Virus record (IMG/VR): IMGVR_UViG_2917849834_000006 | Span: 1-39,408 of that record | Length of the DNA stretch: 39,408 nt | Source: a virus | Lineage: Duplodnaviria > Heunggongvirae > Uroviricota > Caudoviricetes | Direction: 5' to 3' (one strand) | Shown here: positions 5,411 to 18,433 of the stretch, piece by piece | How the letters are laid out: each line of letters begins with the position of its first letter | Position numbering within the stretch: the stretch's first letter is position 1 | Program-made: the position numbers and the translations under genes | The notes under the pieces: model-generated | Databases searched by the model: none | Seen by the model: the letters and a program-made list of their open reading frames with translations, nothing else | What the model was told of the DNA's origin: nothing

Positions 5411-6085
5411 TTAGGTCTTTATTTTGTATCTTCTTGGTTTTCCCGAGAAAATCACTGTACCAATTATAGAGCAATTACCGTTGATCTTAATGTAAGGTTC
5501 AGGCCAGTTTGGGTTTAATGCTTTGAGGTAACGCTGTGTTCCATCTTCTATCAACCGCTTGAAGGTGGTTTCGCCTGTATCGTGCATCAATGCAATAACG
5601 TCGTCACCGTGGCAGGCAGGGACTTCAGGATCAACAAAAATCATGTCTCCTGGGCGGTACTCATCAATCATTGAATCACCAATCACCCGCAAGATATAAG
5701 TCATTTCACCACAGGGTACAGGGCAGGGATAAGTTTCTGCTGTGCTCAAATCAACCTCAGAATAACCAACTTCTTTCCATGCTCCGGCCTGTACCCATGA
5801 TATGACAGGGACTAACGTTATTTGTTTGTTAGTGATTGAAACATCAGGTTTTTTTGTGATGTTCGTTGTCTGGTGTTCTTGATCAAGCCATCCGACAGGC
5901 AGGTCGAAACATTTTTCGATGTGCCGTGCCATGCTGTCACCGATATTTTTAGTTGCACCATCTCCCATAAACCTGCTGGTCTGGGTTGGCTCGCGATCAA
6001 TCATGGTGGCAAAGGAAGAATTCCCGCCAACACCATCTCTCAGTTTTCTGGCGTTAGACCGCCGGATGTCATGGACTGTTTTCAT
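5411..6085 (-). CDS. cI-like repressor with C-terminal S24 (LexA-like) autopeptidase domain
   Basis: 224 aa; N-terminal HTH region and C-terminal VIGDSMIDEYRPGDMIFVDPE S24 signature; divergent from the cro-like gene. Confidence 0.85.
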   Translation of the reverse strand: MKTVHDIRRSNARKLRDGVGGNSSFATMIDREPTQTSRFMGDGATKNIGDSMARHIEKCFDLPVGWLDQEHQTTNITKKPDVSITNKQITLVPVISWVQAGAWKEVGYSEVDLSTAETYPCPVPCGEMTYILRVIGDSMIDEYRPGDMIFVDPEVPACHGDDVIALMHDTGETTFKRLIEDGTQRYLKALNPNWPEPYIKINGNCSIIGTVIFSGKPRRYKIKT

Positions 6086-6971: not shown

Positions 6972-7804
6972 ACAGTTTAACGGCAAATAATCGTTTGTCG
7001 CAACAGCTGGTGGTCAGTGTCGCTGAACACCTGTTGTTACGGCATGAATGCAGATTACCAAATCACCTGGCTGTAAGTAACCACAGAGAACTTTACCTGA
7101 CTGTGGGGGGCGAGTTGTGCAGGAACTTAACCGCTGGTTTCGTGACGGAAGAGGGCTTTATGTCCATGTTATTCGTTGGGAGCCAGAAACACAGCGCGTT
7201 ATCTATCTTCGCAAAGACTACCCGCATGAGTGCTTTAGTCCTTTGTGGAAATTCAGGCGTGATTTTGTTGAGTGTGAAGGACCACCAGCACATTGATTCT
7301 GCCATTCTGGGACGTTACACTGTTCAGGCACCTTATAAAGCGGGTGCCGGGATTGGCGTCCTGGAATTGCATACGGCGACAATTGGCGCGTTAGCGTCTT
7401 TTTTGTTGCTACAACTCAGCTATACCCAAATTATGGTGGGCTGGGTGGGGGCACCGAAAGGTGCGCCGGTTTCCGTATGCGCCGGTTACGCCAACCCTGC
7501 TCAGTTCACCACCAGCGAAATTGGCGTTTCCGGTGGTGGAAGTTATCCATTGCATACGGAGGCTGCCATCATGGCTACTGTCCCAGCCCTCTCTCGTCTG
7601 AATGATGACGACTTACATAAACTCAGTTATGTAACAACTGCACTACGTGCTCTGCGCAAGGTAACTCTTTCGGATCCGCAGGCGCATCAGGTTCTGGTAG
7701 AAACCCTTCTTAACTTGCAGGCTGAACGTATTCGTCTGGCGGATAAGGCTAATTTTCATATTCACCGTCTCCTTAATATCAGCGGAGGGCATCGTCATGC
7801 TTAA
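6968..7804 (+). CDS. Hypothetical protein (early right operon)
   Basis: 278-aa ORF with overlapping stop/start coupling; an alternative-frame protein-like ORF at about 7078-7260 leaves the reading frame in this segment uncertain. Confidence 0.4.
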   Translation: MNSLTANNRLSQQLVVSVAEHLLLRHECRLPNHLAVSNHRELYLTVGGELCRNLTAGFVTEEGFMSMLFVGSQKHSALSIFAKTTRMSALVLCGNSGVILLSVKDHQHIDSAILGRYTVQAPYKAGAGIGVLELHTATIGALASFLLLQLSYTQIMVGWVGAPKGAPVSVCAGYANPAQFTTSEIGVSGGGSYPLHTEAAIMATVPALSRLNDDDLHKLSYVTTALRALRKVTLSDPQAHQVLVETLLNLQAERIRLADKANFHIHRLLNISGGHRHA

Positions 7805-14621: not shown

Positions 14622-14994
14622 GCTGGTTATCTCTGCTTTCTTCGTTACTGTCGTCAGTTCTATCATCTGGTCAGCCAACTACTACAGCAAATATCAGCAC
14701 GAAAAGAAACGTGCTGATGATGCTGCACGAAATGCTGAATCAGCAACTGCTATTACCAATAACGTCCTGCAATCAGTGCAAATCATAAATACAGTTCTGG
14801 AGGCTAACCAGCATGCAAAACAGCAGATCGCACTGGAGTCACAGAGAACCCAGGAAGATATCAAAGCGGCTGTTGCGGATGATGATTGTGCTTCACGTCC
14901 TGTGCCTGCTGCCGCTGCTGACCGGTTGCGGAAATTCGCGAACGGTTTACGTGAGCGCTCCGGTGGCACCACTGCCAGCCAGTCTGACTTCTGA
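14605..14994 (+). CDS. Rz-like inner-membrane spanin
   Basis: N-terminal TM segment, coiled-coil-like periplasmic region, position after the endolysin. Confidence 0.7.
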   Translation: MKLSYKLVISAFFVTVVSSIIWSANYYSKYQHEKKRADDAARNAESATAITNNVLQSVQIINTVLEANQHAKQQIALESQRTQEDIKAAVADDDCASRPVPAAAADRLRKFANGLRERSGGTTASQSDF

Positions 14995-15154
14995 TACTCC
15001 TGTACCGTTTATACCCAATCCGCTGACGTATGGTGCCAGTCTGGAGTTGAATGTGAGTCTGTTGTCAGCGTTGGGACAATGCAATATTGACAAAGCGGGG
15101 ATTAGAAAGATAGAGGCGAGCCGGTCAGGTAGAAATGAATCAGGCTCAAAGTGA
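14879..15154 (+). CDS. Rz1-like outer-membrane lipoprotein spanin, starts inside Rz in the +1 frame and extends beyond it
   Basis: Signal peptide with lipobox LLTGC and proline-rich mature region. Confidence 0.65.
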   Translation: MMIVLHVLCLLPLLTGCGNSRTVYVSAPVAPLPASLTSDTPVPFIPNPLTYGASLELNVSLLSALGQCNIDKAGIRKIEASRSGRNESGSK

Positions 15155-15236
15155 AGCGGAAAAGGTCTGTGGCACAAACTGATGCTGCCATAATTACAGC
15201 CTGATGACTTGTGGAATGAAACATGTTGAACCTCCT

Positions 15237-15797
15237 TAATTGATGTGATTCGAGTGAGGAAGGCATTCTGTCCTTCTATAGTGTCCAGTAAATCAAACAG
15301 GAAGCTTGTCTCACGTGTGAGACAAGCCTCTCCATTAGCGAGTTGTATTGATTACAACTCTTCAAAGAGTTCATTACTGGGTAGATGAAAATAGTTTCAC
15401 GACGAATGGAGGAGACTATGTCGGTGGCTTCTTCATTGGAGTACATATGCTCCCTCGAACCTCAAAAGCATGCCGAGTTCGCGGCTGCCGCCATACCACG
15501 ACTGACCCGTGTTGAAGCTCCGTAATTGATGTTATTCGAGTGAGGAAGGCATTCTGCCCCCCTATACTGTCCAGTAAATCAAACAGGAAACTTGCCTCAC
15601 GCGTGAGACAAGCCTCTCCCATCAGTGAGTTGTATTGATCTCGACTCTTCAAAGAATTCATTACTGGGTAGATGAAAATAGTTTCACGACGAATGGAGGA
15701 GGCTATGTCGGTAGCTTCTTCATTGGAGTACATATGCCACCACGAACCCCAAAAGCCTGCCGTGTTCGCGGCTGCCGCCATACCACAACTGACCCGT
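15237..15797 (+). repeat. Two diverged tandem copies of a ~286-bp unit (15237-15515 and 15523-15797), each with a long palindrome and an HNH-gene 5' end
   Basis: Direct comparison: about 90% identity between copies; copy 1 holds a 22-codon remnant MLPRTSKACRVRGCRHTTTDPC* (15447-15515), copy 2 holds the intact HNH start. Confidence 0.8.
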
Positions 15798-16084
15798 CAG
15801 GCTATTGCGAAAGCCACAAAAGTGAAGGCTGGAAGCAATACAAGCCAGGACAATCCCGTCATCAGCGCGGTTATGGTTCGAAGTGGGACGGTATCCGCGT
15901 GCGCGTCCTGAAGCGTGACAAAGGTTTATGTCAGTTATGTCTGCGTGCTGGTGTGGTGCGTGAGGCGAAAACCGTTGACCACATAATTCCTAAAGCGCAT
16001 GGCGGCACAGATTCAGACAGCAATCTGCAGAGCCTGTGCTGGCCGTGTCATAAGGCGAAGACGGCTCGTGAACGGCTGAAGTAA
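15734..16084 (+). CDS. HNH endonuclease (packaging-associated)
   Basis: HNH motif …DHIIPKAHGGTDSDSNLQSLCWPCHKAK…; directly upstream of the terminase small subunit; ATG at 15734 with GGAG RBS. Confidence 0.85.
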   Translation: MPPRTPKACRVRGCRHTTTDPSGYCESHKSEGWKQYKPGQSRHQRGYGSKWDGIRVRVLKRDKGLCQLCLRAGVVREAKTVDHIIPKAHGGTDSDSNLQSLCWPCHKAKTARERLK

Positions 16085-16208
16085 GAACCAGTTCCCACTG
16101 CCAGAGGGGAGGGCGGGTCAAATCCCTGTGACCTGACGCCTTCAGGACTGCCCGCCCCATCGTTTTTTTATACCCGCGAAAAATGAAATTTAACCAGGAG
16201 TGCCGCAT

Positions 16209-16703
16209 ATGGCTGGAACGGCGGGGCGTTCCGGGCGTCGCCCCAAGCCAACGGCGCGCAAGGCGCTGGCCGGAAACCCCGGCAAGCGAGCCCTGAACAA
16301 AGATGAACCCGTTTTTACGCCCATCAAAGGTGTTGAGCCACCGGAGTGGTTCGCTGAAGAAGAGCTCCCTCTCGCCACGATCATGTGGCAACTGACAACC
16401 AAAGAACTCTGCGGTCAGGGCCTGCTGTGCGTGACTGACCTCGCAGTGCTTGAGCGGTGGTGCGTGGCCTATGAGTTCTGGCGACGTGCTGTGAAAAATA
16501 TTGCCAGACAGGGCAACACCATCACCGGTGCAATGGGCGGCATGGTCAAAAATCCGGAGCTGACCGCCAAAAAAGAACAGGAGTCCGAGATGAGCAGTAC
16601 GGGGGCAATGCTCGGACTCGACCCCAGCAGCCGCCAGCGTCTGATTGGCCTGGCGGGGCAGAAGAAAGCCACTAACCCGTTTCTGAAAATTATCGAATCA
16701 TGA
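16209..16703 (+). CDS. Terminase small subunit (P27/HK97 family)
   Basis: Position between HNH and large terminase, size, charged N-terminus; ATG at 16209 with GGAG RBS. Confidence 0.8.
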
Positions 16704-18433
16704 GCCGGAAATCTTACCCCAACGTAAATGCTGCAAATCAGTATGCCCGGGATGTCGTGCGCGGAAAGATTGTTGCCTGCCAGTTTGTGATTCAGGCCTG
16801 CCAGCGCCATCTTGATGACCTGATGGCGGAAAAAAGTAAGTCGTTTCGTTACCGCTTCGACAAGGACCTGGCTGAACGGGCCGCCAAATTTATTCAGCTG
16901 TTGCCGCACACCAAGGGTGAGTGGGCATTTAAACGGATGCCCATCACGCTGGAGCCGTGGCAGCTATTTGTGATCTGCTGTGCGTTTGGCTGGGTCAATA
17001 AAGGCACCCGGTTGCGCCGCTTCCGGGAGGTGTATACCGAAATTCCCCGTAAGAACGGCAAATCGGCAATCTCTGCCGGTGTTGCCCTGTATTGTTTTGC
17101 CTGTGATAACGAGTTCGGCGCGGAAGTGTATTCCGGTGCCACGACGGAGAAACAGGCATGGGAAGTCTTTCGTCCGGCACGACTGATGTGTAAACGCACA
17201 CCCATGCTGACGGAAGCGTTCGGGATTGAGGTTAACGCCTCAAACATGAACCGTCCGGAGGATGGTGCGCGGTTTGAACCGCTGATCGGTAACCCCGGTG
17301 ATGGTTCATCACCCCACTGTGCCGTGGTGGATGAATATCACGAGCACGCCACAGATGCGCTTTACACCACAATGCTTACCGGGATGGGGGCGCGACGCCA
17401 GCCACTGATGTGGGCCATCACCACCGCCGGGTACAACATTGAGGGGCCGTGCTATGACAAGCGGCGGGAAGTTCTCGAGATGCTCAACGGTTCGGTACCC
17501 AACGATGAACTGTTCGGGATCATCTATACCGTTGACGAAGGCGATGACTGGACCGACCCGGAGGTGCTGGAAAAAGCCAACCCGAATATTGGCGTGTCGG
17601 TTTATCGCGAATTTTTGTTAAGTCAGCAGCAGCGTGCGAAAAATAACGCCCGTCTGGCAAACGTCTTTAAAACAAAACACCTCAATATCTGGGTGTCGGC
17701 GCGTTCGGCGTATTTCAACCTGGTGAGCTGGCAGAGCTGCGAGGATAAATCACTGACCCTTGAGCAGTTCGAGGGGCAGCCGTGCATTCTGGCCTTTGAC
17801 CTGGCGCGTAAGCTGGATATGAACAGCATGGCGCGACTTTATACTCGCGAGATTGACGGTAAAACGCATTACTACAGTGTGGCCCCGCGTTTCTGGGTAC
17901 CGTATGACACGGTGTACAGCGTCGAGAAAAATGAAGATCGACGGACAGCCGAACGCTTTCAGAAATGGGTGGAAATGGGCGTTCTGACCGTTACCGATGG
18001 TGCGGAGGTGGATTATCGCTACATCCTCGAGGAGGCCAAAGCGGCGAACAAAATCAGCCCGGTCAGTGAGTCACCCATCGACCCCTTCGGGGCGACCGGG
18101 TTGTCACATGACCTTGCTGATGAAGACCTGAACCCCATCACTATCATTCAGAACTACACCAACATGTCCGACCCGATGAAAGAGCTGGAAGCGGCAATTG
18201 AATCGGGGCGCTTTCATCATGATGGCAATCCCATCATGACCTGGTGTATCGGCAACGTGGTCGGCAAAACCATTCCGGGTAACGATGATGTGGTGAAGCC
18301 CGTCAAAGAGCAGGCGGAAAACAAAATCGATGGTGCAGTTGCGCTGATTATGGCGGTTGGCAGAGCCATGCTGTACGAGAAAGAAGACACGCTGTCTGAC
18401 CACATTGAGTCCTATGGGATCCGCTCGCTTTAA
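16700..18433 (+). CDS. Terminase large subunit
   Basis: 577 aa; ATPase and nuclease regions typical of Terminase_1; coupled to the small subunit (ATGA overlap). Confidence 0.9.

Follow-up and report, generated by a model that had tools for sequence, protein, structure and literature searches.

The window, by which we mean the whole stretch of 39,408 nucleotides analysed here, carries a tandem duplication between its lysis genes and its packaging genes. A repeat search and a MAFFT alignment show two direct repeats, arranged head to tail at a period of 286-287 nt, within positions 15214-15797, after the stop codon (15154) of the gene for an Rz1-like o-spanin and before the body of an HNH endonuclease gene. 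The two units (copy 1, 15223-15509; copy 2, 15510-15796) are each 287 nt long and are 90.9% identical, which agrees well with the first-pass annotation of this DNA, where a duplication at about 90% identity had been described; the start given there for the repeat, 15237, is 14 nt too far to the right. The o-spanin gene (14813..15154, plus strand; named from the annotation of Shigella phage SfIV) is the last of the lysis genes and provides the left-hand context of the repeat.

The first 63 nt of the HNH gene are contained in each unit and only copy 2 continues into an intact gene, as had been described from the first reading. In copy 1 the ATG at 15447 opens a frame of 22 codons, MLPRTSKACRVRGCRHTTTDPC, whose stop codon ends at 15515 (15447..15515, plus strand), and the same MLPRTSK allele stands at the head of truncated HNH pseudogenes in three other loci (L091, L104 and L115). 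The intact HNH gene (15734..16084, plus strand; 116 aa; Pfam PF01844, E 8e-17) is of the packaging-associated type, is adjoined by a P27-family TerS gene (16200-16703) and is followed by TerL (16700-18433). From the Pfam matches and the annotated relatives this is an HK97/SfIV-type HNH-terminase packaging module, with HNH directly upstream of cos, and the placement of the repeat upstream of such a module holds.

Origin and allelic history of the duplication

At the duplication junction (15480..15539) the sequence reads GACCCGT up to the breakpoint and GTTGAAGC beyond it, beginning GTTGAA, and codon 21 of HNH is fused to the base adjoining the start codon of a short minus-strand open reading frame, ORF40. 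Comparison of the parental edges gives a microhomology of 1 nt, which points to illegitimate recombination. Of 5426 complete E. coli genomes, 19 match a 60-nt probe for the junction at 100% identity and all of the others match it over half its length only, and two copies with the same junction position are found in 6 of 57 IMG/VR loci. Because the junction is common to 19 complete genomes and six IMG/VR contigs, the assembly artefact that the first-pass annotation had allowed for is ruled out. The duplication has a single origin.

The unit is present as a single copy in SfIV, in the O157:H7 prophages and in most other relatives, SfIV and O157:H7 matching the same 1.1 kb minus 286 nt, and the comparison with related prophages also revealed allelic sources for both copies. 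Copy 1, which is 100% identical in 14 duplication-bearing E. coli genomes, shares 98.6-99% identity with the single-copy alleles of L091, L104, L115, L097, E. coli EC9682 and others, and copy 2 shares 98.3% with those of L071 and L082. The divergence between the copies had been read as the mark of an old duplication. Since, however, each copy is 98-99% like single-copy alleles and yet only about 91% like its neighbour, the divergence is allelic and not the result of slow decay in place; it pre-existed between prophage alleles or came in by recombination. The pairs of alleles also vary among the carriers, different duplication-bearing genomes showing identities to window copy 1 and copy 2 of 100% and 96%, 95% and 99%, or 90% and 87%, which implies either reassortment by homologous exchange or an origin between two already diverged phages.

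In its single junction, its 1-nt microhomology, its head-to-tail arrangement and its polymorphism in the population, the repeat is like any ordinary tandem duplication formed by illegitimate recombination; what sets it apart is that its copies, at 91% identity, are distinct alleles and not the identical products of a recent event. A lambda-type prophage of E. coli WP5-W18-ESBL-11 also carries the duplicated module, and there HNH is a 150-nt pseudogene. The duplication itself is probably neutral.

The palindromes and their pairing

Each unit contains a palindrome. That of copy 1 lies where it was first reported, at 15304-15327, and reads GCTTGTCTCAC-GT-GTGAGACAAGC; its counterpart in copy 2, at about 15590-15613, has one mismatch on the plus strand. 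Read as minus-strand RNA, hairpin 1 (15301..15330) has 13 base pairs and is followed by CCUGUUUGAUUU, and hairpin 2 (15587..15616) has a U.G wobble at the position that is a C.A mismatch on the plus strand. The order of features on the minus strand of copy 1 is the hairpin, GAGGCTTGTCTCAC-ACGT-GTGAGACAAGCTTC, then CTGTTTG (7 nt), a promoter-like sequence, a leader of 37 nt, a Shine-Dalgarno sequence, 5 nt and an ATG.

Folding favours the minus strand in both copies. For hairpin 1 the minus strand gives -22.5 kcal/mol (z -5.6) and the plus strand -18.4 kcal/mol (z -4.5), and for hairpin 2 the values are -18.1 against -8.7 kcal/mol. Across 18 distinct alleles, 95.7% of cells are paired on the module strand as opposed to 85.0% on the other, with compensatory double changes at three pairs and frequent G.U pairs. 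This strand-biased pairing, together with the compensatory changes, fits a minus-strand RNA hairpin and not a fixed protein-binding site.

The palindromes had at first been suggested as possible protein-binding sites, with HNH and the small terminase named for a binding check. A reading in which an old duplication diverged in place, and in which the palindromes are such sites near cos, has in its favour the position of the repeat near the packaging genes and the perfect symmetry of the palindrome. The linear records of SfIV, SfV, SfII, SfI and ST64B, however, end at about 16138-16193 of the window, downstream of HNH, and the cos end of SfIV, SfV, SfI and ST64B is some 350-400 nt downstream of the repeat; the SfIV genome is oriented from the small terminase gene to cos at its end (PMC3851460). 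The palindrome varies by compensatory substitutions and G.U wobbles that keep the pairing on the minus strand only, unlike a fixed protein site, and the same module precedes a lambda-type Nu1/A terminase where HNH is truncated. With the nearly identical single-copy alleles that exist for each copy, these observations largely refute the old-duplication and binding-site view, which we consider very improbable. A cos or terminase recognition site at the repeat was likewise ruled out, as the phage genome ends fall after HNH and outside the repeat.

A different account would keep the hairpin and assign it to the plus strand, where it would serve in the leader of the late mRNA to guide processing or to confer stability, with an anti-Shine-Dalgarno-like sequence, ACCTCCTTA, regulating HNH translation and with any resemblance to promoters being incidental. 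The region does sit inside the late operon, with Rz1 before it and HNH after it; hairpin 1 is stable on the plus strand too, at the values given above; and ACCUCCUUA could pair with GGAGGAG at 15407-15413. Against this, the pairing favours the minus strand, and it is copy 2 that actually precedes HNH and in which the plus-strand hairpin (-8.7 kcal/mol) and the anti-Shine-Dalgarno sequence have decayed. We judge a plus-strand leader to be improbable, and further evidence bearing on it is given below.

As to what a minus-strand hairpin might do, a scan with a terminator-like consensus flags both hairpins on the minus strand, the U-rich tail CCUGUUUGAUUU being interrupted. The hairpin could be a terminator or insulator, or it could be the 5' hairpin of a transcript from the T7-type element described below; with its U-rich tail, it could also end such transcripts short of ORF40. 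In the predicted leader RNA a 5' stem-loop is no better than in shuffled sequence (z 0.84), and a search with Rfam 15 at gathering thresholds gave nothing in 15100-16200, the sole matches in the window being C4 and isrK at 7.3-7.5 kb.

An SP6/K1E-type promoter sequence on the minus strand

A distant BLAST comparison of the leader with phages returned a 59-nt match, on the opposite strand, to ACG-C91, mutPK1A2 and ULINTec6, all of which are SP6-like podophages. The homology extends over about 55 nt and covers the hairpin and a promoter at the syntenic gp19-gp20 junction, where SP6, K1E, K1-5 and ACG-C91 share a layout of a hairpin, some 15 nt and a promoter (the junction is gp17-gp18 in K1E). 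The core of hairpin 1, GTCTCACACGTGAGAC, is identical to that of the hairpin in the gp19-gp20 intergenic region of ACG-C91, so that the palindrome has a homologue that is an intergenic hairpin, which argues again against a protein site.

The promoter-like sequence of copy 1 (15273..15293, minus strand) reads ATTTACTGGACACTATAG followed by AAG, with a predicted +1 G at 15276. Given in full as ATTTACTGGACACTATAGAAG and read from 15293 to 15273, it agrees exactly, at 21 of 21 positions, with the consensus of K1E, K1-5 and ACG-C91, for which we took about 21 nt, from -17 to +4, as the defining extent of an SP6/K1E-type promoter. With a position weight matrix (PWM) it scores 35.6 bits, the top of the range of ACG-C91's own promoters (29.3-35.6 bits). 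In ACG-C91 the 21-mer occurs at nine sites with three mismatches or fewer, four of them exact, all intergenic and all on the plus strand, and it is also found upstream of gp18 of K1E and of the corresponding gene of K1-5; this repeated, intergenic, single-strand occurrence identifies it as a promoter of the Vectrevirus RNA polymerase. The plus-strand leader account offers no explanation for the 21/21 identity or for the 59-nt podophage homology.

The conserved core of SP6-type promoters has been defined (PMC13029058), and for SP6 the best initiating triplet, from +1 to +3, is GAA (PMC7429497). Copy 1 has an intact core, CACTATAG (-7 to +1), followed by AAG, and combines the core with a G start and GAA. 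The corresponding site in copy 2 (15559..15579, minus strand), ATTTACTGGACAGTATAGGGG, is degenerate: it carries C-5G and GG at +2/+3, its core CAGTATAG being followed by GGG, so that neither the core nor the start is preserved, and it matches at 18 of 21 positions with 24.6 bits, below the natural range. In the SfIV allele the promoter sequence AGGTGACAC (ATTTAGGTGACACTTTAGAAG as the full site) agrees at 20 of 21 positions with the SP6 consensus, which was checked against eight sites in the SP6 genome, and carries A-3T. The effect of C-5G and A-3T was judged solely from natural promoter variation.

The alleles fall into two kinds with respect to their podophage counterparts. Those of E. coli are Vectrevirus-like, combining the ACG-C91 hairpin core with the K1E-type promoter sequence, and that of SfIV is SP6-like, its hairpin GTCCAACGCGTTGGAC comparing with GTCTAACGCGTTGGAC in SP6. 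Where the SfIV allele departs from those of E. coli, in the hairpin and across -12 to -10 of the promoter, it does so as SP6 departs from K1E; the spacer between hairpin and promoter tracks the prophage lineage and not the podophage. Past the promoter we found no homology of the leader or ORF40 with SP6 gp20 or K1E gp18.

Compared with the SP6-like phages (Molineuxvirinae: SP6, K1E, K1-5 and ACG-C91), then, the module has an identical 21-nt promoter sequence in copy 1, a 16-nt hairpin core identical to that of ACG-C91, and the same order (hairpin, about 15 nt, promoter) in the same orientation. It differs from them in that it resides in a temperate prophage of the HK97/lambda type with no single-subunit RNA polymerase of its own, and in that its spacer, leader and downstream ORF are unrelated to the podophage sequence. 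From these comparisons the hairpin and the SP6-type promoter sequence appear to derive from the gp19-gp20 intergenic region of SP6-like podophages.

A T7-type element upstream of the hairpin

Directly upstream of the hairpin, and on the same strand, each copy has a second promoter-like element, in this case of T7 type. That of copy 1 (15328..15350, minus strand) reads CAATACAACTCGCTAAT followed by GGAGAG, with a predicted +1 at 15333, and is weakened by A-6G; that of copy 2 (15615..15637, minus strand) reads CAATACAACTCACTGAT followed by GGGAGA and carries A-3G. Such phage-RNA-polymerase promoter look-alikes on the minus strand, which make up the main content of the unit, had been missed on the first reading.

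The T7-type elements were scored with a PWM derived from the 17 promoters annotated in T7, which themselves score 26.0-39.2 bits. The SfIV allele (CAATACGACTCACTAATGGGGAG) reaches 26.2 bits, inside the range of real T7 promoters, and is followed by window copy 2 (CAATACAACTCACTGATGGGAGA, 24.7 bits), the commonest allele, of the L077 type (CAATACAACTCACTAATGGAGAG, 22.4 bits), and window copy 1 (CAATACAACTCGCTAATGGAGAG, 17.2 bits). When both strands of the 39-kb window were scanned, the two best sites were those of the module, at 24.7 and 17.2 bits, and the next best reached 7.1 bits.

A T7-type promoter can be defined as a match from -17 to +6 that includes the positions at which none of the 17 T7 promoters varies, namely -15, -14, -10 to -6, -4 and -3. 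Neither window copy conforms to this definition, copy 1 because of A-6G and copy 2 because of A-3G, and all of the invariant positions are kept in the commonest allele elsewhere and in the SfIV allele; the fit to a T7-type promoter is therefore best outside the window, and within it the element is degraded. The form in which TAAT is followed directly by GGGAGA is repeated in T7-like genomes of 39-40 kb, for example that of FE44, which is related to Escherichia phage 285P, and we take it to be a real promoter variant. Set against the promoters of the T7 group (Studiervirinae, including those of the FE44/285P type), the module sequence from -16 to +5 lies within natural T7 variation and the SfIV allele has 14 consecutive consensus bases; unlike T7 promoters, the window copies each have one change at an invariant position, and unlike T7 itself, the module combines -2A with -1T, a combination absent from T7. 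The two window copies are complementary in quality, copy 1 having the perfect K1E-type sequence and a damaged T7-type element and copy 2 the reverse.

The downstream open reading frame

The Shine-Dalgarno sequence of copy 1 (15230..15238, minus strand) is perfect, TAAGGAGGT, and stands 5 nt upstream of the ATG at 15224 that opens ORF40 (15102..15224, minus strand; MFHSTSHQAVIMAASVCATDLFRFTLSLIHFYLTGSPLSF), the 3' half of which overlaps the end of Rz1 in antisense. Every single-copy module retains the ATG together with the Shine-Dalgarno sequence, the latter as a TAAGGAAGT variant in a few. In copy 2 of the window no ORF lies behind the K1E-type site, the ATG having become ACG and the Shine-Dalgarno sequence having decayed to TACGGAGCT; it has similarly decayed in most second copies, where the duplication turned the ATG into ACG.

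The ORF is 40 codons long in 60 of the 60 loci that hold it whole, with one more locus cut at the end of a contig. Its peptide has no Pfam match and no clear transmembrane segment on inspection; a tblastn search of phages returned nothing beyond this module itself and, in Klebsiella phages, sequence antisense to Rz1, and a search of 5.8 billion proteins gave E. coli copies only. Between SfIV and E. coli there are 18 nucleotide differences in the first 20 codons, with no bias to third positions, and the peptide is not conserved. As the peptide is unconserved and the ORF shares its 3' half with Rz1, which constrains it from the other strand, the ORF40 protein may not be the payload of the module.

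In about half of the loci iss/bor lies 180 nt downstream on the same strand. A scan for sigma-70-like promoters on both strands of 14900-16300 found none, and no terminator for the minus-strand unit was found downstream as far as 14900. Of what would define a moron (a promoter of its own, an ORF with a ribosome-binding site, and a terminator, set between conserved phage genes), the module shows promoter look-alikes, a Shine-Dalgarno sequence and an ORF, and it is missing from related HNH loci of other species. Like the lambdoid morons (for example bor/iss downstream of Rz), it is a small opposite-strand unit between lysis and packaging genes, and often it is directly upstream of iss/bor; unlike them, its promoter look-alikes are of the phage-polymerase type and not sigma-70, and no downstream terminator was found.

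Distribution of the module

Of 5426 E. coli genomes, 628 (about 12%), O157:H7 among them, carry the module, identified by its leader, and in none is it annotated. Its host range is confined to prophages of E. coli and Shigella, phage SfIV included, and a metagenome scan found the same alleles and no others; E. coli K-12 DLP12 lacks it. This confinement and the small number of alleles limit the power of comparison. The HNH homologues found in 64 other species have no such leader before them and no PWM matches nearby, and the module is retained beside an HNH pseudogene in a lambda-type prophage; both observations count against a plus-strand leader serving HNH.

Within 104 module-bearing loci (0.99 Mb) every PWM match of at least 18 bits falls inside the module (112 for K1E, 102 for SP6 and 82 for T7) and none elsewhere. 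Contamination by cloning vectors, in which T7 and SP6 promoters flank polylinkers, was considered and rejected: the elements are in tandem and not convergent, they are of the K1E type and a variant T7 type rather than vector sequences, and over 600 complete genomes have the module, as does phage SfIV. A brief search of the open-access literature yielded no report of SP6, K1E or T7 promoters, or of the promoter strings, in prophages, and the paper on SfIV does not mention the module (PMC3851460).

The main rival to the interpretation that we develop below is that the module is a recombination scar, in which pieces of podophage DNA (the T7-type promoter, and the SP6-type hairpin and promoter) were captured by illegitimate or short-homology recombination in past infections and have been hitch-hiking without a selected function, the duplication being neutral. 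The homology to podophages, limited to 55 nt or so, the mosaic breakpoints, which split the hairpin precisely in its middle in L072 and fall just past the promoter in L165, the core-breaking changes in several alleles and the lack of constraint on the ORF40 peptide all speak for it. What it leaves harder to understand is that two promoter types from two subfamilies of phages should be adjacent and co-oriented directly before a perfect Shine-Dalgarno sequence and an ATG, that 1 Mb of the same prophages holds no further instance of either type, and that both elements are intact in the commonest allele. Neutral drift or the transfer of a single patch is also unlikely to make the SfIV and E. coli differences copy the SP6/K1E pattern with a spacer that follows the prophage lineage, and the module outlives the loss of HNH. 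On balance we think a scar rather unlikely.

Discussion

We favour, with moderate confidence, a reading of the sequence in which the repeat unit is a moron-like cassette on the opposite strand that an invading podophage would transcribe with its own RNA polymerase, and which has been duplicated, reassorted and spread among prophages. The anatomy, homology, specificity, population distribution and hairpin strand bias were observed directly, and from the sequence we infer that the promoters may fire and that their product may have an effect. The changes at invariant positions (A-6G, A-3G, C-5G and A-3T) mean that some of the promoter elements may be dead.

The proposed history and mechanism would run as follows. 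One illegitimate recombination would have joined codon 21 of HNH to the base beside the start of the minus-strand ORF and so doubled the 287-nt module; the duplication would then have spread among lambdoid and HK97-like E. coli prophages, its copies being reshuffled by homologous recombination with diverged alleles present elsewhere as single copies. Lying opposite the late genes, the cassette would carry two look-alikes, in the same direction, of promoters for single-subunit phage RNA polymerases. A transcript from the T7-type element would start with the stable hairpin, and about 15 nt further on would come the SP6/K1E-type promoter, the short leader, the Shine-Dalgarno sequence and the 40-codon ORF. 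In the lysogen the cassette would be silent. On infection by a T7-like or SP6/K1E-like podophage that shuts off the host polymerase, the polymerase of the invader would read the cassette leftwards, which would yield the peptide of ORF40 as well as a long antisense RNA across the lysis genes, the most likely outcome being harm to the invader or some other benefit to the prophage. T7 shuts off the host polymerase and its own polymerase stays active (PMC11436027), and since T7-like and SP6/K1E-like podophages inactivate the host enzyme, a cassette driven by the invader makes biological sense.

Taken a step further, and more tentatively, the module can be pictured as a tripwire. It would be an insulated cassette whose sole promoters mimic those of T7-like and SP6/K1E-like phages, expressed only by the polymerase of the invader and immune to the shut-off of host transcription, and it would act against the invader or in favour of prophage escape. 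The bases of the hairpin and those that set promoter specificity would track the local podophage (SP6-type in SfIV and K1E-type in E. coli), and the duplication would stack two alleles of complementary promoter quality. Systems of trans-activation offer precedents: the late promoters of P4 are activated by the Ogr protein of P2, PICIs are induced, and abortive infection has its own triggers. The logic would be the same, in that genes are silent until a specific foreign phage brings the activator; unlike P4 with P2 Ogr and the PICIs, the putative activator here would be the invader's own RNA polymerase acting on mimicked promoters.

What appears to be new here is a moron-like unit with promoter look-alikes of a foreign phage-polymerase type, the tandem duplication itself being ordinary. 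The module documents that podophages, which are strictly lytic, and temperate siphophages have exchanged sequence or that one mimics the other. Defences that need new host transcription should be blinded by T7-like and SP6-like phages, which silence the polymerase of the host early in infection, and a cassette run by the polymerase of the invader would, if the proposal is true, be a simple way round the shut-off and a natural counterpart of engineered T7-promoter kill switches. An effect on growth would matter in practice, as phages of the K1E/K1-5 and T7 types are used in phage therapy and diagnostics. Should the tripwire function prove true, these prophages would carry what is arguably a new class of infection sensor.

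Mosaicism of the duplicated module

The duplicated arrangement of the module recurs, as in the window, in a lambda-type prophage of E. coli WP5-W18-ESBL-11 (compared locus L130, 17001-18524), where it is flanked by iss on one side and, on the other, by a 150-nt HNH pseudogene followed by a terminase of the Nu1/A type. The truncated HNH allele of this prophage is common to three loci that carry a single copy of the module (L091, L104 and L115). In two further loci the junctions between mosaic segments fall within the module itself: in L072 (around 5996-6060) the breakpoint coincides exactly with the midpoint of the hairpin, and in L165 (77-97) it lies just past the K1E-type promoter, 4 nt beyond the promoter start. 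The positions of these breakpoints suggest that the hairpin and the K1E-type promoter are hot spots for recombination.

An open reading frame of 121 codons extends across both repeat copies on the minus strand (window 15416-15781). It is most likely spurious, since it owes its existence solely to the duplication and its frame runs through the hairpin and the promoter.

Neighbouring genes and the cohesive-end site

The SP6-like podophage ACG-C91, which is matched by the promoter and hairpin of the module, itself has an HNH endonuclease gene (L069 35958-36344), lying directly upstream of and adjoining its small terminase gene.

The stretch of the window between the stop of the HNH gene and the start of TerS holds, at ~16107-16160, an inverted repeat that is long and rich in GC, GAGGGCGGG ... 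CCCGCCCC, with seven consecutive T after it. Comparison with the linear genome records of phages SfIV, SfV and SfII places their ends at ~16138-16141, inside this repeat, and the cohesive-end site thus appears to lie in the loop of the inverted-repeat structure.

Elsewhere in the window, Rfam matches at the gathering score identify the Hfq-binding RNA isrK (7328-7404) and the C4 antisense RNA (7429-7516), both on the plus strand; the two together are a typical feature of the immunity region of ant/immI type in P1, P7 and P22-like elements.

In L003 (1029-1322) and in about half of the IMG/VR loci, ORF40 is followed at a distance of ~180 nt by the serum-resistance lipoprotein gene iss/bor, which lies on the same strand, so that a leftward transcript starting in the module would read iss/bor in the sense direction.
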